DNA of 64,000 bases from an uncultured Alphaproteobacteria bacterium. GTDB lineage: Bacteria; Pseudomonadota; Alphaproteobacteria; RF32; CAG-239. Under the pieces are notes generated by a model. That model worked only from the letters and a program-made list of their open reading frames with translations, ran no database searches and was not told the DNA's origin. The stretch covers positions 127-64,126 of the forward strand of contig CALXUO010000049.1 of the NCBI GenBank assembly GCA_944391695.1, given 5' to 3'. Of the stretch, positions 10,254 to 64,000 are shown one piece after another (the first letter of the stretch is position 1; the number at the start of each line of letters is the position of its first letter). Both the position numbers and the translations under genes were made by a program.

Positions 10254-10434
10254 CCTCTCTATCCTTCTTAAAAGGATTGCCTAAAATAATCCCTGCCGCC
10301 GATAATGCCAAAATAAGCAAAACTACTGCTATGTAATATACTGCCTTATCCGCCAAAAACGCAAATAAATCAATGCTGTAGGCTATAATAAGAAGTATTA
10401 ATATTATAAACGTCCCAAGCCATGCTTTTGCCAT
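10234..10434 (-). CDS. small two-TM membrane protein, first gene of the virB6 operon
   Basis: 66 aa: 'WLGTFIILILLIIAYSIDLFAFL' and 'YYIAVVLLILALSAAGIILG' followed by an acidic tail. Its 3' end overlaps the next gene's start by 20 nt. I recognise no family. Confidence 0.45.
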   Translation of the reverse strand: MAKAWLGTFIILILLIIAYSIDLFAFLADKAVYYIAVVLLILALSAAGIILGNPFKKDREDDKSDE

Positions 10435-10467
10435 TTTGAAATTATCCTCCTTTGATACTTATTCTAT

Positions 10468-10565
10468 CATAACATATAAATTACTTATAAAGTGTTACAG
10501 TTTTTTGATTTTTTTATAAAACGCCAAAAAAAATATCGCTTAACCTGTTTTTGTACACAAATTGT
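10468..10565. promoter_or_regulatory. conserved promoter/operator blocks in the divergent region between the virB6 operon and the XRE gene
   Basis: The stretch 10471-10521 (aacatataaattacttataaagtgttacagttttttgatttttttataaaa) recurs at 55393-55442 with 2 substitutions and a 1-nt indel. 'gtacacaaattgt' (10553-10565) matches half of the palindrome at 55486-55503. Confidence 0.55.
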
Positions 10566-10656: not shown

Positions 10657-11628
10657 ATGGAAGAAATTATTTTCCCCAACCAGATACGTATGTACCGCCG
10701 CTTGAGAGGGCGCTCCATGCAAGAGCTGGCCGATCATCTCGGTGTCTCCTTGTCTGCCATATCCAAAATTGAAAAAGGATATCGCCGCGTTGATCAGGAA
10801 CAGTTGGTCAGGGTGGCTGAATTTCTTGATTGCCCTCTACAAGAGTTGTTCGTAAATGAGCAAAACTCCCAACAGGAAATCGTCTTGGCTTGGCGCAGAG
10901 AGCAAGAACGCCGAAATAAAATTAATGAAAAAAGCGGTTTGAAAACTTTGGGTGCCGGGTTGCGGCAAATCCGCAATGAAAAAAACCTTACCTTGATTGA
11001 AGTGGCCGAAAGTGCCGATATGACCTTGTCGGTTTATCACAGAATCGAGATGGGGCAACGCGAGGTTTCCGACAAAGAGATGAAAAATATTGCCAAAGCT
11101 CTTAAATTGCCCGTCGATGAGCTCAAAGCTCAGATTAAAGATTTGGATGAGAAAGGTTTCTTGGAAGAAATTATTCAACGTAATGATGCTAAATATAAAT
11201 TGTTGTCTACTCCCCGAGGTGCTATTGCTTCTTTTGCCGGAATAAATATGGAAAATAATCAGATTTCCGTTTTCGGAACTGCCGGCAAAAACGGCGATGT
11301 AATTATTGATCCGGAAGAGGAAGTTAAGAAAGTTCCTTGCCCTACATCTCTTATAAATAAAAAAGATGCCTATGCGGTTAATCTTTGTACCCGCAGATTA
11401 GGAAATTTGTTGCCGGCCAGAGCTATATTGTTTGTTGATCCTCAGGAGCCTGTCAGCGTAGGAGATATTGCCGTTTACTATTCTTCCGAGGAAGAGGCTA
11501 AGATATTGTCCGTCAGAGAAGATGATATGGGGCAGCTTTATGGTGTTCGTTGGAATCCTGATGAAAAAATAAATTTGAGCGATAATGATTTGCAAAAAGT
11601 TCACCGCGTGGTCTTTATTAGTTTGTAA
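10657..11628 (+). CDS. XRE-family transcriptional regulator with two HTH domains and a LexA/CI-like C-terminal beta domain
   Basis: 323 aa. HTH 1 is 'IRMYRRLRGRSMQELADHLGVSLSAISKIEKGYRRV'. HTH 2 is 'LRQIRNEKNLTLIEVAESADMTLSVYHRIEMGQREV'. The C-terminus 'ARAILFVDPQEPVSVGDIAVYY...VHRVVFI' has the spacing of an S24-like fold but lacks a G-D-S-M type catalytic Ser motif. A GAGGTAA RBS lies upstream and a terminator follows. Confidence 0.7.
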   Translation: MEEIIFPNQIRMYRRLRGRSMQELADHLGVSLSAISKIEKGYRRVDQEQLVRVAEFLDCPLQELFVNEQNSQQEIVLAWRREQERRNKINEKSGLKTLGAGLRQIRNEKNLTLIEVAESADMTLSVYHRIEMGQREVSDKEMKNIAKALKLPVDELKAQIKDLDEKGFLEEIIQRNDAKYKLLSTPRGAIASFAGINMENNQISVFGTAGKNGDVIIDPEEEVKKVPCPTSLINKKDAYAVNLCTRRLGNLLPARAILFVDPQEPVSVGDIAVYYSSEEEAKILSVREDDMGQLYGVRWNPDEKINLSDNDLQKVHRVVFISL

Positions 11629-51069: not shown

Positions 51070-51736
51070 ATGAAAATCGGTCTGATTGTGGCTATGGACA
51101 AAGAATTTGAGCTGATTTGCAAAACTTTGAAAAATATGCTAACCTAAAAAATCGAACATCTAACTTTTGCAGAAGGAAGGCTTGGGCAAAATCAGATAAT
51201 TTTGGTGCAATCAGGTATCGGGAAAGTGTGTTCAGCCGTGGCTACAATGGAAATGATTAAGAATTTTGCACCAGAATATATAATAAGCACCGGAGTTGCC
51301 GGCGGGTTTGCGAAAAAAATTAAAATTGCAGATATTGTGGCCGCAAAACAGATATCTTATCATGACGTGTGGTGCGGAAACGGTAATGAGCTTGGCCAAA
51401 TACAAGGTTTTCCGGCAAAATTTGACGGAGATAAAACCTTGTTGAAGAAACTATCCAATATCAAACTTGGCAACAAAATACATTGCGGACTAATCGTCAG
51501 CGGCGACAGATTTATTGATTGTAAAGACGAACTTAAAAAAATTAAAAAATGTTTTCCGACAGCGTTGGCGGTCGATATGGAATCGGCTTCTATTGCCCAA
51601 GTATGCCATTTGTATAACATACCATTTATGGCGCTTCGTATTATAAGTGATGCTCCAGATAGTTTATCAATATAAAAAATTTTGGCAAACCGCTCCCGCA
51701 GAGTCCCTGGAGATTATAAAAAAATTGCTTAATTAG
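51070..51736 (+). pseudogene. mtnN: 5'-methylthioadenosine/S-adenosylhomocysteine nucleosidase (mtnN/pfs) disrupted by an in-frame TAA and a 3' frameshift
   Basis: The ATG at 51070 gives 'MKIGLIVAMDKEFELICKTLKNMLT', then TAA at 51145-51147. The same frame continues 'KIEHLTFAEGRLGQNQIILVQSGIGKVCSA...MESASIAQVCH...LRIISDAPD'. The expected C-terminus 'VYQYKKFWQTAPAESLEIIKKLLN' is readable only in the +1 frame after about 51655. Confidence 0.75.
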
Positions 51737-52271
51737 TATTGCTCAAGAAAACTTTTAAGGCGGCAAAAACCCGGTTTACCGTGTCGTTTACGCTTTCTTC
51801 TTTGCTTTCAACCACAATATCGGCCTCCGAATAATAGGGGTACTCCTCTTTTATATATGATTCTAATTTGTTTTTGAGCTCAGCATCATCCCCGTTTAGA
51901 AACGGACGACGCTGACGCCCGGCCGTGCGATTATATAATATGTCAACATCTGCTTTGAGCCAAATGGTTATGGCTCTTTCATGCGCAAAATGCCTGGTTT
52001 GCTCGCTGACAAAAGACCCACCGCCAGAGGCTAAAACGCAAGGTGTGCCGCAAAGTAATCTTTTCATAACCCTGGCCTCTCCCGAACGATATTCTTCAAG
52101 GCCAAAACACTTAAATATGTCTATAAGGCTTAGACCTGCCGCCTTTTCGACCTCTTGATCGCCGTCAACAAACGGCAAATCAAGCTTTTGCGCCAGCCTT
52201 TTGCCCACAGAAGTTTTGCCACTGCCCATAAGGCCGACAAGTAAGATTATTTTATCTGTTTGTATGTTCAT
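51729..52271 (-). CDS. aroK: shikimate kinase
   Basis: I trimmed the ORF to the ATG at 52271 (MNIQTDKIILLVGLMGSGKTSVGKRLA). The P-loop is followed by 'FVDGD', and the size is about 180 aa. Confidence 0.8.
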   Translation of the reverse strand: MNIQTDKIILLVGLMGSGKTSVGKRLAQKLDLPFVDGDQEVEKAAGLSLIDIFKCFGLEEYRSGEARVMKRLLCGTPCVLASGGGSFVSEQTRHFAHERAITIWLKADVDILYNRTAGRQRRPFLNGDDAELKNKLESYIKEEYPYYSEADIVVESKEESVNDTVNRVFAALKVFLSNTN

Positions 52272-52359
52272 TTTTAATTTATCTTTCAATTTTGTTGTGC
52301 TAAATATATAAATAACATCTGTTTTTAGCAACATATTTTTTTAAGAAAGGTTTTGAAAA

Positions 52360-52491
52360 ATGCGACGCGAAAAATCAAATTTGATTTACTATGTGGTTGC
52401 CGTTGTGATTGTTGCTGCCTTGGGATTGGTTATGTTTCATGAAATTCCGCTGCATCAAGAACATGTTGAAGAAGTTGTAAAACAGCTATGA
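52360..52491 (+). CDS. possible 43-aa single-TM micro-protein translationally coupled to xerD
   Basis: Not in the ORF track because it is under 60 aa. The product is 'MRREKSNLIYYVVAVVIVAALGLVMFHEIPLHQEHVEEVVKQL'. Its TGA overlaps the xerD ATG as ATGA (52488-52491). Confidence 0.35.
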   Translation: MRREKSNLIYYVVAVVIVAALGLVMFHEIPLHQEHVEEVVKQL

Positions 52492-53387
52492 CGCGCGATT
52501 TTGTTGCCGATTTTTTGAATATGATGGCGGCCGAACGCGGGGCGGCAACAAACACTATTGCGTCATATGATACCGATTTGCAACAATTTGTTGAGTTTTA
52601 TGGCAATGATTTGACCAAAGTTACAGAAACTGATGTGCAAAATTTTGTTCGACATCTTAGTTCTTGTGGATATGCCTCAAAGTCAATTGCCAGGAAAATT
52701 TCGACACTAAAAGATTTTTTTAAGTTTTTACTTACGGAAAAAGAAATTGCTCAGAATCCGATGATTAATATATCGGCCCCAAAACAAGGACGCTCTTTGC
52801 CTAAATTTTTGACCAGAGAGGATGTTAAGCTTTTGATTGAGGCGGCCGAACACAACCCTGATTTGCGGCACAAACGCACTGCCATTATGCTTAGGCTTAT
52901 GTATGCTTGCGGTCTAAGGGTGTCTGAATTGGTTTCTTTGCCGCTTAATTGTATCAATTTTGACCGCAGGCATATTCTGGTTAAAGGTAAAGGTGCCAAA
53001 GAGCGCTTAATTCCTGTTGCCGAGAGCGTAATAAAAAGCGTGATTGAATATTTGCCCATAAGAGAAAAGCTGCTTGGCAGTTCGGAAAAACCTTTTTTGT
53101 TTCCATCGACTTTGGGCAAATGCGGTCATTTGGGACGTGACGGTTTCTTTAAAAATCTAAAAAATCTGGCGGTATTGGCCGGCATAGACCCTCAAAAAGT
53201 ATCCCCTCATGTTTTAAGGCACTCGTTTGCCACTCATTTATTAAACGGAAAGGCCGATTTGCGTTCGGTTCAGATGATGCTGGGGCATGAGGATATCACC
53301 ACAACCGAAATCTATACCCATATCTTATCCCAAGAGTTGCTGGAAGAAGTTAAAACTAAACATCCTTTGGCCAAGTTTAAGATATAA
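52488..53387 (+). CDS. xerD: tyrosine recombinase XerD
   Basis: 299 aa. 'FLNMMAAERGAATNTIASYDTDL', 'ACGLRVSELVSL', 'GKGAKERLIPV', 'SPHVLRHSFATHLL' and 'LGHEDITTTEIYTHI' together give the R..HxxR..Y catalytic set. Confidence 0.85.
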   Translation: MTRDFVADFLNMMAAERGAATNTIASYDTDLQQFVEFYGNDLTKVTETDVQNFVRHLSSCGYASKSIARKISTLKDFFKFLLTEKEIAQNPMINISAPKQGRSLPKFLTREDVKLLIEAAEHNPDLRHKRTAIMLRLMYACGLRVSELVSLPLNCINFDRRHILVKGKGAKERLIPVAESVIKSVIEYLPIREKLLGSSEKPFLFPSTLGKCGHLGRDGFFKNLKNLAVLAGIDPQKVSPHVLRHSFATHLLNGKADLRSVQMMLGHEDITTTEIYTHILSQELLEEVKTKHPLAKFKI

Positions 53388-55340
53388 TTATCCTTTTGGC
53401 TTGCGATAGACACTATGTACTTTTTTGGCGGCCGCCCGCGGTGCGCCGGTAACTCTTTTGACAGCCGCCCCAACTTTGCCGCGAAATGATTTGTCTCGCC
53501 AGGCCTTGTTTTCTTGATCGGCACCACCGATTGCTTTGCCGGCAAGCTGACCCAAACCGGCAACCGGAGCAGATACAATACCAACAATTCCTCCGGCGGC
53601 GTGATATTGATCGGCCAACGCTTTGCCGGTAGGAGCCGAGGCCTTTTTGGCCAGACCTTTGATTGTTGATGCCCCCATGGTACCAATTCTGCCGGCAAGA
53701 CCTCCTTTGAAACCACCCGATGATAGGTTTGAGGCCAAAGGTGATACTTGGGCAACAAATTTAAATCCTAATAAACAAGAGAAAATCAGCAGCATAAATC
53801 CCATGCCTCCGATATCAGACGCCTCTTTCAGCTCGGCAACATTTTGGTTGTTAATGGCTTCTTCTATGCCGCTTAAACCTGCATTTACAGCTGCTCTTAA
53901 TCCGCCCCCGTCTTGAGAGGATTGCTGGTTTTGTGAATAGGCAAGCGATTCATTAACCAGATTGATGCAAACGCTGACAACAAATCCGGTGAAAAATAGG
54001 ACAAAAAACGTATTAAGCAACATTTTGAAACCGGTAGAGGCATATTGCGCCGTGGCTTTTAGCGGCCAGCCGGCTATCATAAATGGCAACATGGCGCCGA
54101 TAACCGCCAGTTGGAGCAGACCGTCCACAAAGTAAAAAGCAAACGAAATTGTCAACAAAAAGCCAAAGACTGCCAAAATACCCCCTAAAAGCATCATTGA
54201 CATTCCGTCTTTCATTTGCGTTTTATCAATTGTTATTATTTCGTGCCCCCCGACACAGAACAGCGTTGTACCGATGGCCTGCATTCGGGCAAGCTGCATT
54301 TGCAACGATGCCAAATATATTTCTATGTGTGTGTATAAAGATGTGCTGCTTTTGCTGCCATCGCTTTTGATTGTGGATGAGACAGGCAAGTTAAAATATT
54401 GATTGGGAGTGTTTATCTCGGTAGGCGTCCAATTTTGAGGCTGAGGCGTAGGCGTGCTTTGAATATAGGTTCCCATTTGCAAGCCGCCCTCTAACAACGG
54501 AATTATGAAATATCTGAAAATATCGTTGGAATATGATAACAGCAGAAAAGCAACCATAACCTTAAAACCTTGTTTTATGATTGCTGACAAAAATTTGGGG
54601 GCATCTTGTTTGGTCATGGGGAAAACCTGTTGCAGAGCAAGAACGGCCAGCCATACGGCAAAAACCACCACCATTACAATCTGAAAACTCTTGGAAAAAG
54701 CACTAAAAGATGTTGTGGTAACATCATTGGCGGCTCCAAAAATCAGCGCGGCCAACGGACAGAAAAAGCAGCTTTGCATATTATATAATTTTACCGGCAA
54801 AACCTCACAGCCTGCAAAACTTTCATTTTCCTTACCGTTGTTACCATATTGAATGGTAGGTTGTTCACCCAGAAATAAAATATATTTTTTTCCATCTGTG
54901 CCTGTCAGTTCACCCCTATTAACGGTTACATTTCCTTTGGTATCCATAGCGGTTGTATCAACGTTATGTTCTACTTTCCAGCAATTGATTCCTGATACGT
55001 TCCTTCTTTCTGTGCCTTTAGGATAACATCTGCCGACAGTTTTTGAGGCGGCTCCCCCAGAATAGCCTGTTCCGGCATCAATTATTTGACCACTTTCTCT
55101 GCACATCCAACATTCCTGCGTTTGTTTATCACAAAACTCATCGCCGCATTTCATAAGTGAGCTACCTTCATAATCTTTTTGAAGTATGCTCTCCCATTCA
55201 CTTAGCCCTTTTTCTCTAGCAAATTCGGCGGCTGACATGGGATTATAAAAGTTTTGGGCGGCGGCAATATTAAGACTGCATGCCCAAAATAGGCCTGTTA
55301 TTAAAAATAGAATTGATATGTTCTTTGCCTGCTTAAACAT
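53388..55340 (-). CDS. virB6: fifth VirB6/TrbL-like membrane protein (orphan paralog with a Cys-rich N-terminal ectodomain)
   Basis: 650 aa with a signal peptide. The N-terminal domain 'MKCGDEFCDKQTQECWMC...SCFFCPL' is colinear with that of the 7902..10253 product. 'FAVWLAVLALQQVFPMT', many TM helices, and 'IGTMGASTIKGLAKKASAPT' follow. Its stop abuts the xerD stop with 0 nt between them. Confidence 0.65.
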   Translation of the reverse strand: MFKQAKNISILFLITGLFWACSLNIAAAQNFYNPMSAAEFAREKGLSEWESILQKDYEGSSLMKCGDEFCDKQTQECWMCRESGQIIDAGTGYSGGAASKTVGRCYPKGTERRNVSGINCWKVEHNVDTTAMDTKGNVTVNRGELTGTDGKKYILFLGEQPTIQYGNNGKENESFAGCEVLPVKLYNMQSCFFCPLAALIFGAANDVTTTSFSAFSKSFQIVMVVVFAVWLAVLALQQVFPMTKQDAPKFLSAIIKQGFKVMVAFLLLSYSNDIFRYFIIPLLEGGLQMGTYIQSTPTPQPQNWTPTEINTPNQYFNLPVSSTIKSDGSKSSTSLYTHIEIYLASLQMQLARMQAIGTTLFCVGGHEIITIDKTQMKDGMSMMLLGGILAVFGFLLTISFAFYFVDGLLQLAVIGAMLPFMIAGWPLKATAQYASTGFKMLLNTFFVLFFTGFVVSVCINLVNESLAYSQNQQSSQDGGGLRAAVNAGLSGIEEAINNQNVAELKEASDIGGMGFMLLIFSCLLGFKFVAQVSPLASNLSSGGFKGGLAGRIGTMGASTIKGLAKKASAPTGKALADQYHAAGGIVGIVSAPVAGLGQLAGKAIGGADQENKAWRDKSFRGKVGAAVKRVTGAPRAAAKKVHSVYRKPKG

Positions 55341-55389
55341 GATGTTGGGCGCCTTACATGTTGGTCTTATGATTAATCAATAAAATTAT

Positions 55390-55503
55390 TGTAACACATA
55401 AATTACTTAAAAAGTGTTACAGTTTTTTGATTTTTTATAAAAAGACGGATTATGACGCATATTTAATCATAAAAATTTAAAAATCATACACAAATTTGTG
55501 TAT
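55390..55503. promoter_or_regulatory. conserved promoter/operator blocks in the divergent region between the orphan virB6 gene and the pilus cluster
   Basis: A perfect 8-bp inverted repeat TGTAACAC-N16-GTGTTACA spans 55390-55421. It lies inside the block of about 50 nt shared with 10471-10521. A perfect 18-bp palindrome ATACACAAATTTGTGTAT lies at 55486-55503. Confidence 0.55.
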
Positions 55504-55568
55504 ATTTTTTCGCGAGTCTTGCCAAGAGTCGCATTTTGATTTATCTAGGGTTTAGAGGGGTTTAATTT

Positions 55569-57260
55569 ATGCATAAAACAGTTATCAAAGCTTTTGTATG
55601 CAGTTTTTCGGTATCTTTGCTTGCCATTTTGACGGCAAACAGAGCTTTTTATCATACTCCTCAAAATGATCAAGAACCCCTTGAAATAAGCAAAAAAAAT
55701 ATTGTTTTATTCTTAAAAAATAGCGGAGCAGCAAAATTTCCGATTAAAAAAATCGCTTTGAATACTTTGCCCGAAATACAAAAGCAAAACAAAGACGTTG
55801 TCAATCCCGAGCCTGAGGTTATTTTGGCTGGAGTTGATGATAATTTGATTTTTCCGCTTGAAGTTGATGATTATGCAAACGAAACCGCCCCGATTCAAGA
55901 TTTGGTCTTAACTGATGTATTATATGCCCCAGATAAGCCTTTGCCTCTGCCAGAAATTGAGGCAGAAGCCGTTTATGAACCCAAAGATGAAATAAAAATC
56001 GCCGAAAGCTCAGGCGATAAAGATATCGGAGAACAGAAAATCGTTTATTCCGCCGCGGCTGATAAAAAGATTACCCCTCCTTTAATCGCCGAGGTCGCAG
56101 CTGAGAGCAGTCAAGAAGAACAAGCCTTGATACTGTCCAGGCAAGAACAGGTCGGAATTATTCCTTTGCAAAAATCTGCAAATCAGGCTCCGAAAAATGT
56201 TACCATCGGCAATCCGGAAAATTTGAACCATATTGCCATGGATAAGCCGGATGTTCCCATCCAAAGTTTGGAAAAAGAAATTGCTCAAACAATTGATAGC
56301 GAAGATGCGGAACAACAATGGCAGAAAATGAGCGACAATCCTTGGGTTATTGCTCAAAGCAAGGGCGCAAAAAACAAGATGCTTAATAAGGATTTGACCG
56401 GTAAACCGACCAAAGAAATAGATGCTACTTTTAACCCCCAACCAGCGCGCGCAGGAATTGAGGTTGCTTCAGAGACGGTTAAAAATCTTATTATCCCAAT
56501 TCCCGGAGATATTATGGATGATGATGATTTGACACCAAAACTGGCCTACCCCCCATCATCTGAAGATGCAATTAAAGAAAAAATTATTGATGCTGAGATA
56601 AAAAGACAGGAAAAATTGTCGGCTCAAGAAGAGACAAACAAAGAACTGCTCACTCCGATAGAAGAAGAGATTGTGCTTGATGTTGAAAAAAATCCTCTTG
56701 AAGAAGATATTGCCACCCAAAAAGACTCAGAGCAGCAGAAAAAAGCTGAGAGCAAAGGCGGGACTATTGTTAAGGCTTTAACATCTATTTTTTCAAAACC
56801 CCAAGATGACAAAGGTAGTACAGACACTTCTGATGCCATAAACAAGGCTAAAGAACGGGCTATTGCCAAAGCCAAAGCCAAACGTGCGGCATTAAAAGAT
56901 TATGAGATGTCAAAACCTGTTTCTATAATGCCTACGGAAATACGCTTATCTTTTCAACCCAACAGGGCAGAAATATCCGGACAGACGTTGCGCTGGGTTC
57001 AAGCTTTTGCTTCAAAAGCCGCCGAAACCCCCGAAACAGCCTTGGAAATAAGAATAGACGGAACAAGCTCGACAGCACTCCAACAAAAAAGATTAAATTT
57101 GCTGCATAACATTTTAACCAACAAAGGTGTCGAATACTCGAAAATAAACATAGTATTTACGGCAAGAGAGCCAAACAGCTTTGTTTTGCGGACCATTAAT
57201 ACAAAAAGAGAGACGGATAAAATAAATGAAACTTACCAGACGCAGTACATACAATGGTAA
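55569..57260 (+). CDS. hypothetical membrane-anchored acidic protein, first gene of the pilus-side operon
   Basis: 563 aa with a GAGGGG RBS and TM helix 'FVCSFSVSLLAILTANRAF'. A long E/K/P-rich region follows. The C-terminal segment of about 100 aa, 'IRLSFQPNRAEISGQTLRWVQAF...LEIRIDGTSS...RLNLLHNILTNKGV', has the spacing of an OmpA-C/MotB-like fold, but I cannot confirm the family. Confidence 0.45.
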   Translation: MHKTVIKAFVCSFSVSLLAILTANRAFYHTPQNDQEPLEISKKNIVLFLKNSGAAKFPIKKIALNTLPEIQKQNKDVVNPEPEVILAGVDDNLIFPLEVDDYANETAPIQDLVLTDVLYAPDKPLPLPEIEAEAVYEPKDEIKIAESSGDKDIGEQKIVYSAAADKKITPPLIAEVAAESSQEEQALILSRQEQVGIIPLQKSANQAPKNVTIGNPENLNHIAMDKPDVPIQSLEKEIAQTIDSEDAEQQWQKMSDNPWVIAQSKGAKNKMLNKDLTGKPTKEIDATFNPQPARAGIEVASETVKNLIIPIPGDIMDDDDLTPKLAYPPSSEDAIKEKIIDAEIKRQEKLSAQEETNKELLTPIEEEIVLDVEKNPLEEDIATQKDSEQQKKAESKGGTIVKALTSIFSKPQDDKGSTDTSDAINKAKERAIAKAKAKRAALKDYEMSKPVSIMPTEIRLSFQPNRAEISGQTLRWVQAFASKAAETPETALEIRIDGTSSTALQQKRLNLLHNILTNKGVEYSKINIVFTAREPNSFVLRTINTKRETDKINETYQTQYIQW

Positions 57261-57314
57261 TAACTGTTTTACGGTGCTTGATTATTTATTTTTCAATAGT
57301 ATGATAGGGAAAAT

Positions 57315-58061
57315 ATGATGAAAAATTCTATTCAAAGGATTGCAAAAATGAACTTAAGAAAAATATACGGAGTATCTTTGCTGTGTTTTCTACTTGTTGG
57401 ATGCGGCAAACATTATACTTTGTGGGGTACGTCGGATGATACAAATGCAACAGGAGCGGAAGAAATTTCTTATGTTCAAGAAACTCAGGTAGTGCCGGTA
57501 ATTGTTCCACCGGAGCAGATGGCTCAGTCTTATGACAATTTTGTTCAATACCGCACAGGCGCGGCGGATTATCGCGAGTTTGGCGAAAGGACACCTCAGG
57601 ATCAATATATAATTACCAACGGTGCCGGGAGCAATATGTCGGCGGCAATTCCACCAACGATAGATGAAGAGGTTACAGATTATGAAATTGCTGTGAGCGA
57701 AGCTTTCAGCGAAGCTGTTGCGGAAAGCGGCAATGGTGAAGGCGCCAGCACTAGCAGCAATAGTAATGAAACCATAGATTCAGAAGATGATGCCGTGGAA
57801 GATTGGTTGGCCGAAGAAGGAAACACCTTAAAAGGGCTTTTGTCTGAGTGGAGCGATAGGGCTGGCTGGAGATTGGTTTGGAACTCGAACCGGAATTATA
57901 CTTTGGGCGCTGGAGCTATGTTCAGAGGAAGATTTGCTGATGTTGCTTCAGCTTTGATACGTAATTTTGCCAGAGCGCAGCCTGCGCCGATGGCCACATT
58001 TTATAAAGGCAACCGAGTATTAGTTGTTGAAACGAGGGAGGATGAGAATGCGTATAACTAA
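57315..58061 (+). CDS. pilL: PilL-like type IVb pilus lipoprotein (TcpQ-like C-terminal domain)
   Basis: Lipoprotein signal 'VSLLCFLLVGC'. The C-terminus 'GNTLKGLLSEWSDRAGWRLVWNSNRNYTLGAGAMFRGRFADVASALIRNF' fits the PilL/TcpQ domain pattern. The gene lies directly upstream of the secretin gene. The start could instead be 57348. Confidence 0.55.
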   Translation: MMKNSIQRIAKMNLRKIYGVSLLCFLLVGCGKHYTLWGTSDDTNATGAEEISYVQETQVVPVIVPPEQMAQSYDNFVQYRTGAADYREFGERTPQDQYIITNGAGSNMSAAIPPTIDEEVTDYEIAVSEAFSEAVAESGNGEGASTSSNSNETIDSEDDAVEDWLAEEGNTLKGLLSEWSDRAGWRLVWNSNRNYTLGAGAMFRGRFADVASALIRNFARAQPAPMATFYKGNRVLVVETREDENAYN

Positions 58062-59646
58062 CTGGAAAAAAATCGGATTTGGCTTTTGCGCTCTTGCTTT
58101 TGCCGCTTCTTGCTCTATTTCAACAACGATGGACGCCTCGTTGGAAAAGGATGTCGACGCAGCGACAAAGCTACGCGAGGATGCAAAAATTCCGACCAAG
58201 GTGGCTAATCAAGATTTGGTAAAAGTTAAAGATGATATTTGGCTTGGAGATACCAGCAAAATAGAATATGAGGGAGAGCCTTTGCCGTCTTATCTGGAAG
58301 CAACCGACGGCATAACCTTGGTATCTAATCGCCCAATATCGCTTTATGAAATCGGCGACATGATTAACCGTACGACTGGATTGGGGGTTCGTTATGCCTC
58401 GGATTTGGAGGCAGATATCAGAGCCAAAGGTGAAAGCAACCGCCCGGGGGTTACGGCTCAAGTCGGCGATTGGGCTTCTCCGGATACGATGATGGTTTCT
58501 TATCAAGGGCCTTTGAGTAGCTTTTTGGATGAGGTATCTTCGCGTTTTGGTGTTTGGTGGAAATATGAAAATAAAGATATTTATTTTTATAAATTCATAA
58601 CTAAAACTTTTGTAATATATTCGCTGCCGACAAAGCCAAGTATGAATGTAAATATCGGTGGAAGCGCATCAGGTGGCGGAGCTTCGTCGGCTATTAGCTT
58701 GACTTCTTCGATTGATGTTGAGATGTGGGCGCAATTTGAGGCAACTATTACATCAATGATAAGCGAGGGAGCAAAGCTTACGGTATCTCCTGCGGACGGC
58801 ACGATTACACTAACGGCTACACCTAATGATATTAAATTGGTGGCTAAATATATTAATGAGCAAAACGTTCGTCTTTCAAGACAGGTTGCCATTTCGGTTA
58901 AGATTATGCAGGTTACCGTGGGGGATAGTGACAAATATGGCTTAGATCTTAAAGCGACGTTTAATGATGGCGTAAGCTCTATCGGTATTACCGGAACACA
59001 AGGTATTTCATCGGAAGATTTATCAAGCTCTTTAACTTGGGGAATTATAAAAAACAACTGGTCAGCCGATGCAATTATGCAGGCTATTTCTGAAAAGAAT
59101 CGCTCTTCATTGATAACCAGCGGCACGATTACCACTTTGAACAACAAACCGGCGCCGATTCAAGTTACTCAGAAGCAGAACTATATTTCTGAGATGACTA
59201 AGACCAATAACGGTACCGATGGTACAAACTACGATATATCGGTTACGACAGAAGAAATTGAGACCGGATTTACGCTTGATGTTTTGCCCCGTATTTTGGA
59301 GCATGGTAGAATGTTGGTAATGTTTAACATGACTTTATCTGATCTGTTGTCTTTGGAAAAAGTTTCTTTTGGTAACGATGATGAGAATCAATATATTCAA
59401 AATCCGATTATTGAATCCAGAGCCTTTACGCAAGAAGTTGCCTTGGCATCTGGGGAATCGTTAATTCTTACTGGTTATGAAAAAGTTTCATCGGAAACAG
59501 ACAAAACTGGTACGGGATCTGCAGATAATTCTTTGCTGGGCGGATCGGCCTCGGCCAGCAAAGATCGTAACATTTTGGTTATTATATTGACACCGGTTGT
59601 CTTGGAAACTCCTTTGTCGCCTGAAACCAGAATGAGTATGAATTAA
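58042..59646 (+). CDS. pilN: PilN-like type IVb pilus secretin lipoprotein
   Basis: ATG at 58042 follows GAGGGAGG. The lipobox is 'ALAFAASC'. The N0-like region reads 'GVWWKYENKDIYFYKFITKTFVIYSLP'. The secretin domain includes 'VAISVKIMQVTVGDSDKYGLDL', 'LNNKPAPIQVTQ', 'TGFTLDVLPRIL', 'GESLILTGYEK' and 'ILVIILTPVVLE'. Confidence 0.8.
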   Translation: MRMRITNWKKIGFGFCALAFAASCSISTTMDASLEKDVDAATKLREDAKIPTKVANQDLVKVKDDIWLGDTSKIEYEGEPLPSYLEATDGITLVSNRPISLYEIGDMINRTTGLGVRYASDLEADIRAKGESNRPGVTAQVGDWASPDTMMVSYQGPLSSFLDEVSSRFGVWWKYENKDIYFYKFITKTFVIYSLPTKPSMNVNIGGSASGGGASSAISLTSSIDVEMWAQFEATITSMISEGAKLTVSPADGTITLTATPNDIKLVAKYINEQNVRLSRQVAISVKIMQVTVGDSDKYGLDLKATFNDGVSSIGITGTQGISSEDLSSSLTWGIIKNNWSADAIMQAISEKNRSSLITSGTITTLNNKPAPIQVTQKQNYISEMTKTNNGTDGTNYDISVTTEEIETGFTLDVLPRILEHGRMLVMFNMTLSDLLSLEKVSFGNDDENQYIQNPIIESRAFTQEVALASGESLILTGYEKVSSETDKTGTGSADNSLLGGSASASKDRNILVIILTPVVLETPLSPETRMSMN

Positions 59647-59670
59647 TAAGTTTTACGGGAGATACCGGAG

Positions 59671-61002
59671 GTGCTGGAAGAAGCAAAACTTTTAGATGAT
59701 GATTATGATGACGGGGCAGGAAAAAGGTCTTGGGGTACCTCTATAAGTATTAGTGGTATTTCCTATGCTACCAGTTTGTTCTGGCAACCGCTACAAAACA
59801 CCAGCGATTATCTGCAAGAAGTTGAAGAGGCTTCTAACAGTATTTTGGAGGGGGCTGATTTATTTTGTATTAAGGGCGGAAAAGCTCCTCAATTTGGTAT
59901 TTGCGTTTCTCATGAAGGATATAGGAGCGGCGAGCTTGTTGCAGCGGTTTCTTTAGCGACTGCTTTGTCAAACGTGTCGTCTTTTGTTGCCGTATTTAAG
60001 ACCAGAGAAGGCTGGTGGTACACTTGCGTACGTAATGATATCATCTTGTCTGACGGTGATATGCTGTTTTTGACCGAAGAAGAGGCTAAAAACCAATTCT
60101 TGTCGATGATGGCCGTGCCTGATTGGGGCAAAAAAATTGCCCCGAAAGAATGGGGAATCGAAGATACCGAAGAAATAGACGTAGAAGATCTTTTGTCCCG
60201 AGGTGCAAAAGTTAAGCTACAAAAAATAAAAGGGCTGCGCGGATCTAAATTGATTTTGGTTATTGTCATTTCGGCGATTGTTGGTTTATGGTTGGTTTCG
60301 AGCTTAATTGATAAGCTGTTTTTTACTCCGGTAAAAAGACCAGTGGTGGTTCCAGTAAGGCCTAAGGTTGTTCAGCAGGTTGAAGTTAAAGAGGTGCCTA
60401 AACCTTGGGAAAAAGTTAAGAATCCGCAACAATTTATGCAAAACTGTTTCCAAGGAATAACCCAGCTGGTTACTATTATGCCTCCGGGATGGAATATAGG
60501 CTCGGTCAGTTGTGCGAATAATTCCGTGGCAACTTCTTGGCAAAGACAAGTCGGGCAAATGTCTTGGATGGAGACAGCTTTGAAAAATTCCGGATTACAA
60601 TTCAGCGGATATTCATTTGATGTTACGGGCAATACTTTGACGGCGTCTTTACCTTTGAATCCGGTGGAGGTGCTTTCTTCGCCTCCGGACAGGCAAATGA
60701 TTGATTTGAGAAACACCATCAATGATCAGTTTCAATCTTTGGGGTTGCCGATTACTTTGACGGAGAGTTCAATTACAACTCAAGTTCAGGCTCCGCAAAC
60801 TGTTGCTAAGGGGCCGGCAGCACGGAGAGCAGCCAGCGCACCTATAACTTTTAGAATGTTGAAATTCACATTTGACTCACCACACAATCCATTAGTTTGG
60901 TTGCCGTTGTTAACAAAATATTCAGGTCTTGATTTTAATATGATTACATATTCTCCAAGCGGAGACGTTTGGCATTATGAGGGAGTTATCTATGTTCTAT
61001 GA
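59671..61002 (+). CDS. pilO: PilO-like type IVb pilus biogenesis protein
   Basis: 443 aa with a GTG start after GGAG and one central TM helix 'LILVIVISAIVGLWLVSSLI'. The size and the position between the secretin and pilP/pilQ match R64 PilO and PAPI-1 PilO2. The family call rests mainly on synteny. Confidence 0.5.
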   Translation: MLEEAKLLDDDYDDGAGKRSWGTSISISGISYATSLFWQPLQNTSDYLQEVEEASNSILEGADLFCIKGGKAPQFGICVSHEGYRSGELVAAVSLATALSNVSSFVAVFKTREGWWYTCVRNDIILSDGDMLFLTEEEAKNQFLSMMAVPDWGKKIAPKEWGIEDTEEIDVEDLLSRGAKVKLQKIKGLRGSKLILVIVISAIVGLWLVSSLIDKLFFTPVKRPVVVPVRPKVVQQVEVKEVPKPWEKVKNPQQFMQNCFQGITQLVTIMPPGWNIGSVSCANNSVATSWQRQVGQMSWMETALKNSGLQFSGYSFDVTGNTLTASLPLNPVEVLSSPPDRQMIDLRNTINDQFQSLGLPITLTESSITTQVQAPQTVAKGPAARRAASAPITFRMLKFTFDSPHNPLVWLPLLTKYSGLDFNMITYSPSGDVWHYEGVIYVL

Positions 61003-62320
61003 TAAGAAAAATATTTTATTAATTATGTCATCTTGCATTTTAGCTTTTGCAGCTAATCCTGTGAACGCACAAGGATTGGTTTCTTTGTCGGAAGAGGCAA
61101 TGTTTGATGACGGATTGGAAACGTCTCCGGAAGTGCCTGATATTGAGGCTAAAAAATCTACTGAGGCAGACGCTTCGGTGCCAATTGCCGCAGCATCGGC
61201 ATCCGCTGGCGCTGACGCTAAATCCGAGACTTCGGTTATTACTACGCCTAAAACGGCTCCTAAAGCAAATGTTTTCGAAAGTCAATCTCTTTCCTCGGAT
61301 ATTGAAGACACCTCCGCAATTAATTTGTTCGGAAATTCCGGTGATGATGAAGCTTTGATAGATAAAGATTTGTTTACTCAGATGTCGGAATTAGAAAAAC
61401 GCACGGCTTTGCTTAACTTGGAGTTGCGCAGGGAAAAACTGCAAAATGATATTGAAGCCGTTAAGAATCAGAGACGACAAGCTATACAGCAAGAACAAGA
61501 AAGGATTGAAGCGCAGCGGTTGAAGAATCTTAAATTGGAAAAAGAGCAAGAGCAGAAGGTGTTGGTTGAACAACAGAAACTACGTGATTTGGATATCCAG
61601 TTTGAGAAATTACGTCAAGAGAAGGTGCTGACCGCTTATAAAAATCAGATGTTGGAAGAAAATCAGAGATGGATTGAGCATAATGCCAGTTTTTATAAAC
61701 AAATTGCCGCTTTGCAGCAATCTAAAAAAGACCTAATTTCAGAAAATAAGAAAAAAATGGAAACCTTGCAAAAAGAAGCCTTGGAAGCAAGTAAAGCTTA
61801 TAATAAGACCATCGAAAATCACAAACGCGAGGTTAGAGATTTGCAATCTCAGATTTCGGTCTTGAGAAATCGTATCAAGACTGTGGAACAGGAAAATGAA
61901 GAGATGAAAAAGAATCCGTTTGCCAATGCCGAAGGTGCTGTTTCGACAAGGGTTGATGAGATGGTTTCGGAAAAAAGCGGTAAATTTGATGATGAACCAG
62001 TGGAGACTGATTTGTCTAAATTGTATGCAGTTACAGAAATCAGAGGTCAAGGCAATGAGTTGATTGCTAAATTGATAAACAAAAATGGTACAACTTTCTA
62101 TGTAAAGAAAGGGACGGCTTTGCAATCAGGGCATATTATCGGAGATATTACTACAACTTATGTTACAGCTGAAAAAGATGGTGCCCCGACTTATTTATAC
62201 TTTGCTGCGGGCGGTATTGTTCCGGTTGAAACTACCGGATTTGAACTTGAGTCACAAACGCAAGATACAGTAAGTAAAAAAGAGCAAGCTATTGCTGCTC
62301 CGGTAGCTGGATCGTTGTAA
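60992..62320 (+). CDS. pilP: PilP-like type IVb pilus protein with an inserted coiled coil
   Basis: ATG at 60992 follows GAGGGAG. The signal peptide is 'ILLIMSSCILAFAANPVNAQ'. A long E/K/Q coiled coil follows. The C-terminus 'LYAVTEIRGQGNELIAKLINKNGTTFYVKKGTALQSGHIIGDIT' fits the PilP beta-domain pattern. Confidence 0.55.
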   Translation: MFYDKKNILLIMSSCILAFAANPVNAQGLVSLSEEAMFDDGLETSPEVPDIEAKKSTEADASVPIAAASASAGADAKSETSVITTPKTAPKANVFESQSLSSDIEDTSAINLFGNSGDDEALIDKDLFTQMSELEKRTALLNLELRREKLQNDIEAVKNQRRQAIQQEQERIEAQRLKNLKLEKEQEQKVLVEQQKLRDLDIQFEKLRQEKVLTAYKNQMLEENQRWIEHNASFYKQIAALQQSKKDLISENKKKMETLQKEALEASKAYNKTIENHKREVRDLQSQISVLRNRIKTVEQENEEMKKNPFANAEGAVSTRVDEMVSEKSGKFDDEPVETDLSKLYAVTEIRGQGNELIAKLINKNGTTFYVKKGTALQSGHIIGDITTTYVTAEKDGAPTYLYFAAGGIVPVETTGFELESQTQDTVSKKEQAIAAPVAGSL

Positions 62321-62331
62321 TGGATTAGTTG

Positions 62332-64000
62332 ATGGCAGATGAAAATGAAAAAGCCGAGGATACTCAAGCGGCAGCATCCGGTGCGGATGTGGATGCCGAA
62401 AGTGGGGCTGTGTCTTCGGCTCAGCTAGTTGCGGCAGCAAAAAAGGAAAGTGAAACCGAGGATAATCCATCAGAAAAACAATCTATTACCGAAGTTTATT
62501 TTTCTAATGGAAATAGATTATTGACTTTGCCGGGGTCTTCGTTGGCAGTAAATGATGATACCAGGCGTTTGTTGGCTTTGTTTTCCGACGGTCGCTTTTT
62601 GGTGGTTGAAACTCACAAATTTGACGGACGTGTTTTAAGTTTTGAAGTTTTGGCCAGAAAGAAAAAACTGGCAATTGCCAAACCGATTTATGTTTCGCAA
62701 AACGAATTAAACGCCATATATTCTATTGGTGAACGCGCACAAGCTGCCGAAGAAGTTTCGGCCGATACAGAGCTTGATCAACTACAGATGCAGAAAGACT
62801 TTGTTAACGTGGTAGCGCGTGCCGCGAGCCGCAAAGTTTCTGATATTCATGTTGTGGTTGCAGGCAGTACAACAATTATGTTCCGTGTTAACGGCATGAT
62901 GCAGGTTGAGATGGAATACAATAAAGAGTGGGGTGAATCTTTTGTGCGTGCGGCTTTTGCCTCGGCTGATATTTCGGATTCAAACTATGCCCAAAATGAA
63001 TTCCAAGGAGCACAAAAACTTGGTTCTACACCTTTGCGCGGCTCTAAAGGAAAGCTGATGTTACCGCATAATGTGTTGGCTATTCGTCTACAATTTAATC
63101 CGATTGCTTTTGGTTCGCAATATTTGGTTATGCGATTGTTGTATGCCGATGATAATCCTGATGGCTCGGGTGATTTGACAGCTTTAGGCTTTGGCGAATT
63201 TGAGGAGGATTTATTTTATCGCTTAAGAGCTGTACCGGTAGGTTTGAGTATTATTGCCGGACCTACGGGGTCGGGAAAATCTACTACTTTGCAGAGAAAC
63301 ATGATTAAATTGCTGCAAGAGAAGAATTATGAGCTAAACCTTTTGACGGTGGAAGATCCGCCGGAGTATCCTATCCCTGGGGCGAGACAGATGCCAGTTA
63401 CCAATGCCAACACCGAAGAAGAAAGAGCCGAACAATTTACCAAAGCTCTATCGGCGGCATTGCGATCTGACCCTGATGTGATTATGGTGGGCGAGATCAG
63501 GGCTTTGGCGGCGGCGCAATTGACTTTCCAGGGGGCGCTGTCCGGACACGGAATGTGGTCAACTTTGCATGCTAACTCTGCGCCGGCAATTATTAACCGT
63601 TTTCGTGATATGGGGGTTGAGACATTTAAACTGCTTGACCCTGAGCTTATTAAGGGATTGATATCTCAACGTCTTTTTCGTAAGATTTGTCCGCATTGCC
63701 GCATCTCGGTTAAAGAACGACAAAATGACCCGTCGTTTCAACGTTTGCAAACTGCTTTGGGAGATTTTGGTGTGGAAAACACCTATGTTCGCGGCCCGGG
63801 GTGTAAATTTTGCAATAACACCGGTATTAAAGGGCGTATGTGTGTGCCGGAAATTATTTTGCCGGACGCAACATTTTTGGAATTGATGATTAAAGGCGAG
63901 ACCAGAAAAGCAATTGATTATTGGACATCTGATCTGAACGGACGCACATTAAAAGAAGCGGCCATGGAGCGAATGCTTAAGGGCTTTATTGATTTGGACG
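62332..64000 (+). CDS. pilQ: PilQ/GspE-family type IVb pilus assembly ATPase (3' end beyond the window)
   Basis: Not in the ORF track because there is no stop within the window. My own translation from the ATG at 62332 stays open to 64000. It gives the Walker A 'IIAGPTGSGKSTTLQ', the Asp box 'RSDPDVIMVGEIR', the His box 'SGHGMWSTLHAN', and the tetra-Cys motif 'CPHC...CKFCNNTGIKGR'. Confidence 0.85.
   Translation, partial: MADENEKAEDTQAAASGADVDAESGAVSSAQLVAAAKKESETEDNPSEKQSITEVYFSNGNRLLTLPGSSLAVNDDTRRLLALFSDGRFLVVETHKFDGRVLSFEVLARKKKLAIAKPIYVSQNELNAIYSIGERAQAAEEVSADTELDQLQMQKDFVNVVARAASRKVSDIHVVVAGSTTIMFRVNGMMQVEMEYNKEWGESFVRAAFASADISDSNYAQNEFQGAQKLGSTPLRGSKGKLMLPHNVLAIRLQFNPIAFGSQYLVMRLLYADDNPDGSGDLTALGFGEFEEDLFYRLRAVPVGLSIIAGPTGSGKSTTLQRNMIKLLQEKNYELNLLTVEDPPEYPIPGARQMPVTNANTEEERAEQFTKALSAALRSDPDVIMVGEIRALAAAQLTFQGALSGHGMWSTLHANSAPAIINRFRDMGVETFKLLDPELIKGLISQRLFRKICPHCRISVKERQNDPSFQRLQTALGDFGVENTYVRGPGCKFCNNTGIKGRMCVPEIILPDATFLELMIKGETRKAIDYWTSDLNGRTLKEAAMERMLKGFIDLD

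Follow-up and report, generated by a model that had tools for sequence, protein, structure and literature searches.

To our knowledge, R64-class type IVb pili have been described almost exclusively as conjugation helpers on plasmids and integrative and conjugative elements (ICEs) of Gamma- and Betaproteobacteria. In the ICE-borne pil2 clusters (PAPI-1/pKLC102 and the SPI-7 family), a PilL-N-O-P-Q-R-S core adjoins a type IV secretion system (T4SS). The pili of R64 and TP114 are reported to act in mating-pair stabilisation and cell-cell attachment (PMC9045228), and a survey of type IV filaments placed type IVb pili outside Gammaproteobacteria only in Acidithiobacillia and Nitrospirae (PMC6668835). 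In this study, we analysed a 64-kb stretch of DNA from an uncultured alphaproteobacterium (GCA_944391695.1, contig CALXUO010000049.1, positions 127 to 64,126; hereafter the window), and found that its last part, 55569-64000, encodes, on the chromosome, about the first two-thirds of an R64-like type IVb pilus operon (PilN/PilO/PilP class). The operon accompanies a large VirB-type T4SS and is passed on vertically among uncultured Alphaproteobacteria of gut and rumen, which carry the labels CAG:495, Candidatus Scatocola and 'Azospirillum sp. 51_20'. In the searchable literature we found no account of pili or secretion systems for this clade.

The pilus operon and its gene products

Six genes on the + strand, with intergenic gaps or overlaps of -38 to +54 nt, form one tight operon in the order p563, PilL (a TcpQ lipoprotein), PilN secretin, PilO, PilP and PilQ (a GspE-type ATPase) (Table 1). 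Their identities are based on Pfam and NCBIfam profile searches, AlphaFold2 (AF2) models and Foldseek. An initial annotation, made from the sequence alone, had proposed an R64/PilLNOPQ-class type IVb cluster of five listed genes; both the class and the places of the five genes agree with our results, the core genes being recognised by profiles or folds and the relatives adding pilR and pilS. The profile check suggested at that time places PilL and PilO above their cut-offs and PilN and PilP below, with PilP matching by fold.

The TcpQ domain of PilL (residues 163-239) matches PF10671 with E 4.5e-16 and 59.1 bits (cut-off 27), and the C-terminus of IncI PilL matches the PilL-like gene in 19 relatives by tblastn; this lipoprotein is probably a secretin partner or pilotin. 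PilN matches TIGR02520 with E 2.4e-83 and 280.4 bits, 7 bits short of the curated cut-off of 287.65, as well as Pfam Secretin (E 7e-15). It starts at 58024, or at 58048 in other gene callers, and plasmid PilN genes in 2951 plasmid records are 25-32% identical to it (tblastn). PilO is covered by PF06864 over residues 36-442 of 443 (E 7.4e-20, 71.6 bits, cut-off 26.7) and belongs to a family of 726 representative clusters, with no match among PDB sequences. PilQ matches T2SSE (E 2.6e-62), and its best NCBIfam matches are GspE and PilB. The full-length protein has 559-571 aa in two relatives (loci L002 and L142), which puts ~14 final codons past the window end; because the window ends inside pilQ, pilR and pilS can be read in relatives only.

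PilP was initially described as enlarged to 442 aa by a coiled coil, and the enlargement is upheld. The listed open reading frame (ORF) starts at 60977, and a conserved Met6 start at 60992 gives 442 aa. In the 60977-62320 reading, NCBIfam pilP_fam matches residues 284-397 with 27.9 bits, under the cut-off of 34.65. The AF2 model has an N-terminal signal or anchor helix followed by a disordered acidic linker, one unbroken helix at 138-311 (174 residues, predicted local distance difference test (pLDDT) >95, ~26 nm if extended), and a C-terminal beta domain at 350-409 (pLDDT 86-90). Foldseek matched this beta domain to PilP 3jc8_Pa (E 4.7e-4), to GspC-HR 3oss_C (TM-score 0.79) and to PilP 2lc4 and 2y4y. 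Since comparison of the window PilP with plasmid PilP was not significant by BLASTP or hhalign, the identity of PilP was settled by the fold match. The PilP/GspC-HR domain binds secretin N0 domains in type IVa pilus and type II secretion systems (T2SS), and the model suggests that PilP carries its secretin-binding domain on a helix of periplasm length. All 25 aligned orthologues have 427-549 aa, indicating that the enlargement is fixed in the clade.

The first gene product, p563, was initially described as an acidic membrane-anchored protein of unknown family. It indeed has no Pfam or NCBIfam match, Pfam OmpA included, and its profile has no match among PDB sequences; its 669 homologues are all hypothetical proteins of alphaproteobacterial metagenome-assembled genomes (MAGs). 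Its C-terminal fold can now be identified, however, as OmpA/Pal/MotB-like. The AF2 model, built on 38 orthologues, has an N-terminal transmembrane (TM) helix, a periplasmic linker of ~420 aa that is acidic, largely disordered and of low confidence, and, at the C-terminus, a domain of beta-alpha-beta-alpha-beta-beta fold (pLDDT 85-92). All 43 PDB matches of this domain at E<=1e-3 in Foldseek are OmpA-like, OprF, Pal or MotB, the top matches having E 2e-5 to 1e-3, and D497 and R508, a candidate counterpart of the Asp/Arg pair that binds diaminopimelate (DAP) in such domains, are invariant in the p563 alignment. On the basis of the model, we propose that p563 is an inner-membrane-tethered cell-wall (peptidoglycan) anchor of the pilus machine.

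The part of the operon beyond the window was read in 60 species-level loci of uncultured gut or rumen Alphaproteobacteria, which were found by a scan with PilO (42-78% PilO identity). The 447-aa reading of PilP has no exact counterpart on record, the window's exact PilL protein is otherwise found only on contigs of 1.8-5.4 kb, and the nearest longer relative, L142 (p563 91% identical), stands in for the downstream part. In L002, L142, L047 and L033, pilQ is followed by genes for PilR (T2SSF), for a pilin-like protein that lacks the Gly/Glu5 motif needed for processing, and for PilS prepilins (PF08805), in which the leader ends in EQSG before RSMVEML. The PilS pilins match both Bundlin and PilS profiles and are encoded by one to six tandem paralogues (e.g. 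L033:16197-18256 and L047:16106-18249), the N-terminal halves being nearly identical and the C-terminal, disulfide-bearing halves different. These tandem paralogues mirror the tandem VirB2 paralogues at the T4SS head. In 34 of the 60 loci the pilins are followed by a well-conserved, small PilT-like ATPase of 320-339 aa, for which PilT/PilU is the best family, far under cut-off, and which is 33% identical (E 6e-42) to the ATPase after the pilin gene on a Polaromonas plasmid. The gene after the pilus operon varies, with the small ATPase commonest (28/50 loci) and then varied housekeeping genes.

Among the further genes that the initial annotation had pointed to, pilR and pilS are thus present in relatives, but pilU, pilV and a shufflon are absent nearby in ~100 species. 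IncI PilK, PilM, PilT, PilU and PilV and Polaromonas PilM and PilV gave no tblastn matches in the window and in ~140 loci of +/-10 kb; an Rci shufflon was not found either, the ORFs 3' of the pilins being the ATPase or housekeeping genes. These negatives, together with the core genes, indicate that the cluster is of R64 class by its core, without peptidase, transglycosylase, PilV adhesin or shufflon.

Like the thin pilus clusters of IncI1 and IncI2 plasmids (R64 pilI-pilV; TP114), the cluster has the order PilL, PilN, PilO, PilP, PilQ, PilR, PilS and a lipoprotein secretin, its PilS-type pilins have a long hydrophobic N-terminus and Glu5, and it is encoded beside a T4SS. Unlike them, it is chromosomal and vertically inherited, lacks PilI/J/K, PilM, the PilT transglycosylase, the PilU peptidase, PilV and the Rci shufflon, and adds the putative OmpA-like anchor, the helix-extended PilP and the tandem pilin paralogues (the pilins being read in relatives). 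The partner T4SS of R64 is type IVB (mating-pair formation class MPF_I) and conjugative, whereas the partner in the window is VirB-type. ICE pil2 elements are integrated at tRNA genes and bring along a relaxase, an integrase and a T4SS of class MPF_G; the window has none of these. The toxin-coregulated pilus (TCP) and bundle-forming pilus (BFP) systems (TcpQ/TcpC, bundlin) also have a TcpQ domain that partners the secretin and Bundlin-profile pilins; in contrast, the window has a secretin of the PilN family and PilO and PilP of R64 class, and the cluster lacks both a minor pilin of TcpB/CofB type and any tie to a virulence island.

These family assignments also bear on the possibility that the filament machine serves mainly for DNA uptake or for T2SS-like secretion of periplasmic proteins. 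Competence pili and T2SSs belong to the type IV filament superfamily, GspE is the best-scoring family for the ATPase, and DNA can be imported by VirB-like systems that have no VirD4, an example being H. pylori ComB. However, the secretin, PilO, PilP and the pilins match type IVb pilus families rather than T2SS or Com families, and neither a pseudopilin set (GspG-K) nor genes for ComEA and ComEC are in view, which makes a role of this kind extremely unlikely.

Linkage to the T4SS and inheritance in the clade

The T4SS occupies ~2.1-48.8 kb of the window on the minus strand. It is a 47-kb expanded VirB-type system with two VirB2 genes, a 1486-aa VirB2-domain protein, VirB4, two VirB8, VirB11, four VirB6 paralogues, VirB9 with a SPOR domain and a 1681-aa VirB10 with beta-flower repeats. 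A scan with VirB4 found it in 174 species, of which 80 were kept; window proteins were then mapped onto 140 loci from the PilO and VirB4 scans, which were collapsed to 102 assemblies. All 60 PilO loci and all 174 VirB4 loci are in gut or rumen alphaproteobacterial MAGs. The pilus operon is directly divergent from virB2, across a ~300-nt intergenic region, in 64 assemblies; 14 have the layout of the window, with a housekeeping block and usually an orphan virB6 between the two systems; in two the T4SS head lies directly 3' of the pilins; in four the partner is outside the flank; and 18 are uninformative because of contig ends. Thus, the head-to-head junction is found in 64 of the 84 informative species-level assemblies (76%), a tie between pilus and T4SS stronger than the initial annotation, which had called for such a check, could see. 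The same layout also occurs at PilO identities of 38-43% (L055-L057 and L151). In L151:1476-15724 (GCA_050175015.1; PilO 38% identical), virB3-virB4 is directly divergent from a 978-aa p563 counterpart, which is followed by TcpQ, secretin, PilO, a 478-aa PilP-like protein, PilQ and PilR, with no pilin genes 3' of pilR.

The ancestral head-to-head position with virB2, the first T4SS gene, implies that one divergent control region of ~300 nt was common to both systems. In the window, alignment shows this region split, with its virB2-proximal ~170 nt and its p563-proximal ~95 nt at separate places (Table 1). Because both halves are still recognisable, the housekeeping block and the orphan virB6 between them are a secondary insertion or rearrangement. 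The layout of the window is therefore derived: a rearrangement confined to its subclade put six housekeeping genes, a virB6 paralogue and the promoter of that paralogue between the two systems. Furthermore, the identity of PilN and PilO to the window proteins varies with that of VirB4 (Spearman rho 0.85 and 0.84, respectively; n=71), which indicates that the two systems diverged together and were not exchanged separately. Across the clade, median identity is high for cytoplasmic or inner-membrane parts (VirB4 81%, PilQ 87% and PilR 83%, the latter two measured against L002), and periplasmic or surface parts evolve fast (PilP 44%, p563 36%, VirB2 60%).

The orphan virB6 had initially been taken as a link between pilus and T4SS. 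It is a true paralogue, 32% identical (E 1e-84, BLASTP) to the first gene of the virB6 array (7902-10253) and less similar to the other three array paralogues (E 1e-12 to 1e-32, BLASTP), with a weak Pfam TrbL/VirB6 match (E 5.6e-4). However, it adjoins the pilus operon only in the window's subclade, as part of the derived rearrangement, and the linking role was not upheld. The closest longer relative, L142, keeps only its first 117 codons.

The initial annotation also regarded the combination of such a pilus with a VirB-type machine as undescribed, but VirB (MPF_T) systems already occur with this pilus class on annotated conjugative plasmids of Polaromonas and Hydrogenophaga. Conjugative MPF_T plasmids of these genera give the best plasmid matches to the window PilN (30-32% identity), and we compared Polaromonas sp. 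JS666 plasmid 1 (NC_007949) and Hydrogenophaga pPBL-H3_B2-1 (NZ_CP044976). In these Comamonadaceae plasmids, as in the clade, a VirB-type T4SS lies directly beside an R64-class pilus cluster with the order OmpA-containing protein, TcpQ protein, PilN, PilO, PilP, PilQ, PilR, pilin and small ATPase. The whole plasmid order is virB2-virB10, a large TcpQ-domain protein, a small TcpQ protein, PilN, PilO2, PilP, PilQ, PilR, pilin, ATPase, PilM, a second ATPase and PilV. Unlike the window, the plasmids are conjugative, with MOBP/MOBH relaxases; their T4SS and pilus genes are collinear in one operon, whereas the two loci are divergent in the window's clade; they have PilM, a second ATPase and a PilV adhesin, whereas the clade's cluster is without PilM and PilV nearby; and their PilP is short (158-194 aa) and their T4SS compact, as against a PilP of 442 aa and a T4SS of 47 kb in the window. 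The chromosomal cluster is thus an apparently non-conjugative version of an already known VirB-pilus partnership, in which the chromosomal setting is new.

The putative anchor proteins differ as well. Between virB10 and the pilus genes, the Polaromonas plasmid encodes a fusion of VirB9/CagX-like, OmpA and TcpQ domains (L143:11798-13111), and the Hydrogenophaga counterpart (L141:9948-11585) has CagX and two TcpQ stretches. This domain make-up suggests that the fusion protein is a physical bridge from the T4SS outer-membrane complex to the pilus secretin in those plasmids. The window p563 is not a fusion: it has no CagX or TcpQ domain, and hhalign against the Polaromonas fusion protein was not significant. 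Homology in sequence between p563 and the large TcpQ-domain proteins of the plasmids was considered and dropped after BLASTP and hhalign gave nothing significant; the agreement is limited to the OmpA-like fold and the gene position.

The plasmid relatives raise the question of whether the locus is the remnant of an integrated conjugative element or plasmid, in which the pilus would stabilise mating pairs as in R64, PAPI-1 and the Comamonadaceae plasmids. The closest annotated PilN relatives are on conjugative plasmids, and the closest plasmid VirB4 relatives belong to compact VirB/VirD4 operons with a MobA relaxase. However, the 64-kb window holds no relaxase, type IV coupling protein, tRNA or integrase of phage or ICE type; its only recombinase is XerD/XerC-like and stands among aroK, luxS and apt; housekeeping genes flank the loci; GC content is even (0.37-0.46) across the window; and the divergence of the cluster across ~100 species tracks as core genes do, with neither a shufflon nor PilV found. 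The lack of mobility genes and tRNA in the 64 kb, the even GC content and the co-divergence led us to reject the ICE or plasmid reading, and a conjugative remnant is very unlikely. The initial annotation had already noted that no conjugation genes were in view, and the relaxase and integrase genes that would have marked an ordinary ICE or plasmid were indeed not found in the window. Finally, the nearest plasmid relatives of the window VirB4 are compact alphaproteobacterial VirB/VirD4 operons without pil genes (Microvirga, 39%, then Erythrobacter and Paracaedimonas), not those of Comamonadaceae, and so the pairing in the gut clade probably arose independently.

Control elements and neighbouring genes

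The initial annotation had proposed that pilus and T4SS share an operator. The underlying cis-element is real: a 54-nt module is nearly identical at two window sites (Table 1), and because the proteins downstream of these are just 32% identical, it is under strong constraint. By nhmmer, 18 copies were found (E 1e-9 to 1e-15), with further copies in L142 and L145. In every examined case, 30-50 nt separate the module from a T4SS gene on the minus strand downstream of it, namely the virB6 array, the orphan virB6 or the giant VirB2-domain gene (L016 and L018), and, read toward these genes, it ends in TGnTA(C/T)(A/G)AT, an extended -10. Where the layout is ancestral, the pilus control region does not contain it. 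As it faces T4SS genes and is absent there, we read it as a promoter module of the T4SS (virB6/giant pilin), rather than an operator common to pilus and T4SS. The species of the window is alone in having perfect 8-nt arms, TGTAACAC-N16-GTGTTACA; the dyad symmetry is thus not a conserved feature. Judged by sequence, the module travelled with the virB6 duplicate, and in the window genome it could influence the pilus promoter ~40 nt away. We also considered whether the motif TGTAACA could be a single operator acting on the pilus, on virB6 and on the T4SS head; TTGTAACA has 5 occurrences against 2.4 expected, which is not significant, and it was rejected as a single operator because it lies in the -35 of the T4SS head but in the -10 of the virB6 module.

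The pilus operon has a leader with conserved elements of its own. Within the spacer of a promoter-like TTAAAA-18-TATATT (55477-55506) lies the palindrome TACACAAATTTGTGTA (55487-55502); the dyad inside this promoter-like site reads ATCCACA...TGTG. The leader further contains GCGAGTCTTGCCAAGAGTCGC, a dyad at 55512-55532, as well as CATTTTGATTTATC, which is invariant, and the Shine-Dalgarno sequence AGAGGGG. The 11-mer TCTTGCCAAGA, with conserved flanks, stands before p563 in 43 assemblies or more. A 29-nt stretch within 55512-55545, TCTTGCCAAGAGTCGCATTTTGATTTATC, which includes an 8+8 dyad, is likewise essentially invariant in at least 43 assemblies, although p563 itself is only ~36% identical. 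This stretch could be an operator or an RNA element of the 5'-untranslated region; an Rfam scan of 48200-55700 matched no family.

Table 1. Pilus genes, orphan VirB6 and control elements in the window
Feature	Position	Strand	Description
54-nt promoter module, copy 1	10463..10518	-	precedes a 62-codon membrane ORF and then the virB6 array; opposite the tandem helix-turn-helix XRE regulator gene 10657-11628
T4SS-head (virB2) promoter region	48808..48975	-	aligns with the VirB2a-proximal intergenic part of L016, L018 and L030; now 6.5 kb from the pilus half
Orphan VirB6 paralogue	53388..55340	-	650 aa; signal peptide, Cys-rich periplasmic domain, multi-TM core, basic tail
54-nt promoter module, copy 2	55385..55438	-	reads AAAAAATCAAAAAACTGTAACAC-N-TAAGTAATTTATGTGTTACAAT; extended -10 TGnTACAAT at 55396-55388, ~40 nt 5' of the virB6 ATG
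Pilus-operon control region and leader	55475..55568	+	aligns with the p563-proximal half of the VirB2-p563 intergenic region of relatives
p563	55569..57260	+	563 aa; TM helix 2-28, acidic linker, C-terminal OmpA/Pal/MotB-like domain 455-548
PilL-like lipoprotein	57315..58061	+	248 aa; Pfam PF10671 TcpQ; lipobox LLVGC
PilN-family secretin	58024..59646	+	Pfam Secretin and NCBIfam TIGR02520; candidate lipobox FAASC
PilO	59671..61002	+	443 aa; Pfam PF06864 PAP_PilO; one TM segment; bitopic
Enlarged PilP	60992..62320	+	442 aa; sub-cut-off NCBIfam pilP_fam; PilP/GspC-HR fold in model
PilQ assembly ATPase (GspE/PilB family)	62329..64000	+	Pfam T2SSE; 3' end open

Several features of the neighbouring DNA were also observed. 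The recombinase gene next to the orphan virB6 (52488-53387) scores as XerD/XerC and has aroK, luxS, apt and a ROK kinase gene as neighbours. An MtnN/Pfs-like ORF (51202-51675) encodes 157 aa covering positions 47-199 of the 233 of Pfam PNP_UDP_1, as compared with 226 aa for the L002 orthologue, and looks truncated or broken in the window genome; the adjoining luxS is intact. Between promoter module copy 1 and the first virB6 gene lies an unlisted 62-codon ORF (10254-10440, minus strand), which encodes a two-TM membrane peptide (MAKAWLGTFIILILL...) behind a strong Shine-Dalgarno sequence. A 424-aa lipoprotein of the T4SS operon was considered as PilN-like and dropped, as no similarity was seen by BLASTP (E 0.76). 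In a rumen MAG (L095, JAFUEX010000023, ~4.8-12.5 kb), virB4 directly adjoins the ROK/aroK/xerD block and the orphan virB6, which has the 54-nt element, with no virB2 or giant pilin genes detected between block and virB4, so that the T4SS head seems missing or moved.

Proposed role of the pilus beside the T4SS

By analogy with the described systems, the pilus is probably a long-range attachment organelle serving a contact-dependent T4SS; with it, a target cell would be caught and drawn to the secretion channel. The PilQ motor, the PilR platform, PilO and the PilN secretin would form an envelope-spanning machine polymerising the PilS paralogues, in which PilP would reach the PilN secretin on its long helix, PilL would be the lipoprotein partner of PilN, and the OmpA-like domain of p563 would be part of the machine. 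In species with the small ATPase, retraction of the pilus may then carry the captured cell to the T4SS; ancestrally, both operons could have been co-regulated from one divergent region. R64, TP114 and PAPI-1 pili play a mating-pair attachment role for conjugative T4SSs, and precedent for the function comes from the same pilus class adjoining MPF_I systems on IncI plasmids, MPF_T systems on Comamonadaceae plasmids and the T4SSs of ICEs.

Several observations weigh against such a role. The small ATPase, on which retraction would depend, is not a neighbour of the operon in the subclade of the window. Neither a tip adhesin of PilV type nor a prepilin peptidase was found within 10 kb in ~100 species, so pilin processing must rely on a gene elsewhere. 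The adjacency of pilus and T4SS is lost in the window's subclade and in at least four other assemblies, and may be simply inherited. Lastly, the sequence of the window was found in DNA runs from chicken-gut metagenomes and in no RNA runs.

Alternatively, the pilus may be an independent colonisation or aggregation pilus like TCP, BFP, CFA/III and Longus, binding mucus, epithelium or sister cells, with its place beside the T4SS an inherited accident. Consistent with this, the pilins match the Bundlin profile besides that of PilS, the tandem and C-terminally variable pilins suggest surface or antigenic variation, the linkage is broken in several lineages, the window's included, and the pilus leader has its own conserved control elements, which are not common to the T4SS promoters. 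However, the exact head-to-head junction is kept in 76% of informative species, the moved T4SS head again adjoins the pilus in two assemblies, and every known PilN/PilO-class cluster examined sits with a T4SS. An independent colonisation pilus therefore seems rather unlikely to us, and we prefer an attachment organelle that serves the T4SS.

In an extended form of that preferred reading, which we offer tentatively, the pilus and the expanded VirB machine would be one co-evolved organelle, consisting of a grappling-hook pilus, retractile in many species, and a relaxase-less T4SS acting as injector or adhesion platform. With it, these gut alphaproteobacteria would attach to other cells and exploit them, be they bacteria, protists or cells of the host epithelium. 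The organelle would descend from a conjugation-pilus partnership, having been domesticated and being no longer conjugative, and would define the lifestyle of the whole clade.

In summary, a pilus machine of R64 class is among the core traits that over 100 species of uncultured but abundant gut Alphaproteobacteria inherit vertically, and in them it is tied to a giant T4SS that has no genes for DNA transfer in view. The plasmid precedents lessen the novelty of the pairing, and its conservation across a large uncultured gut lineage adds to its interest. If both systems act together, they would represent a conjugation accessory retained after the T4SS changed its job, the conserved promoter and leader elements would serve as handles for studies of regulation, and the pairing would provide a testable hypothesis for how these organisms contact other cells.

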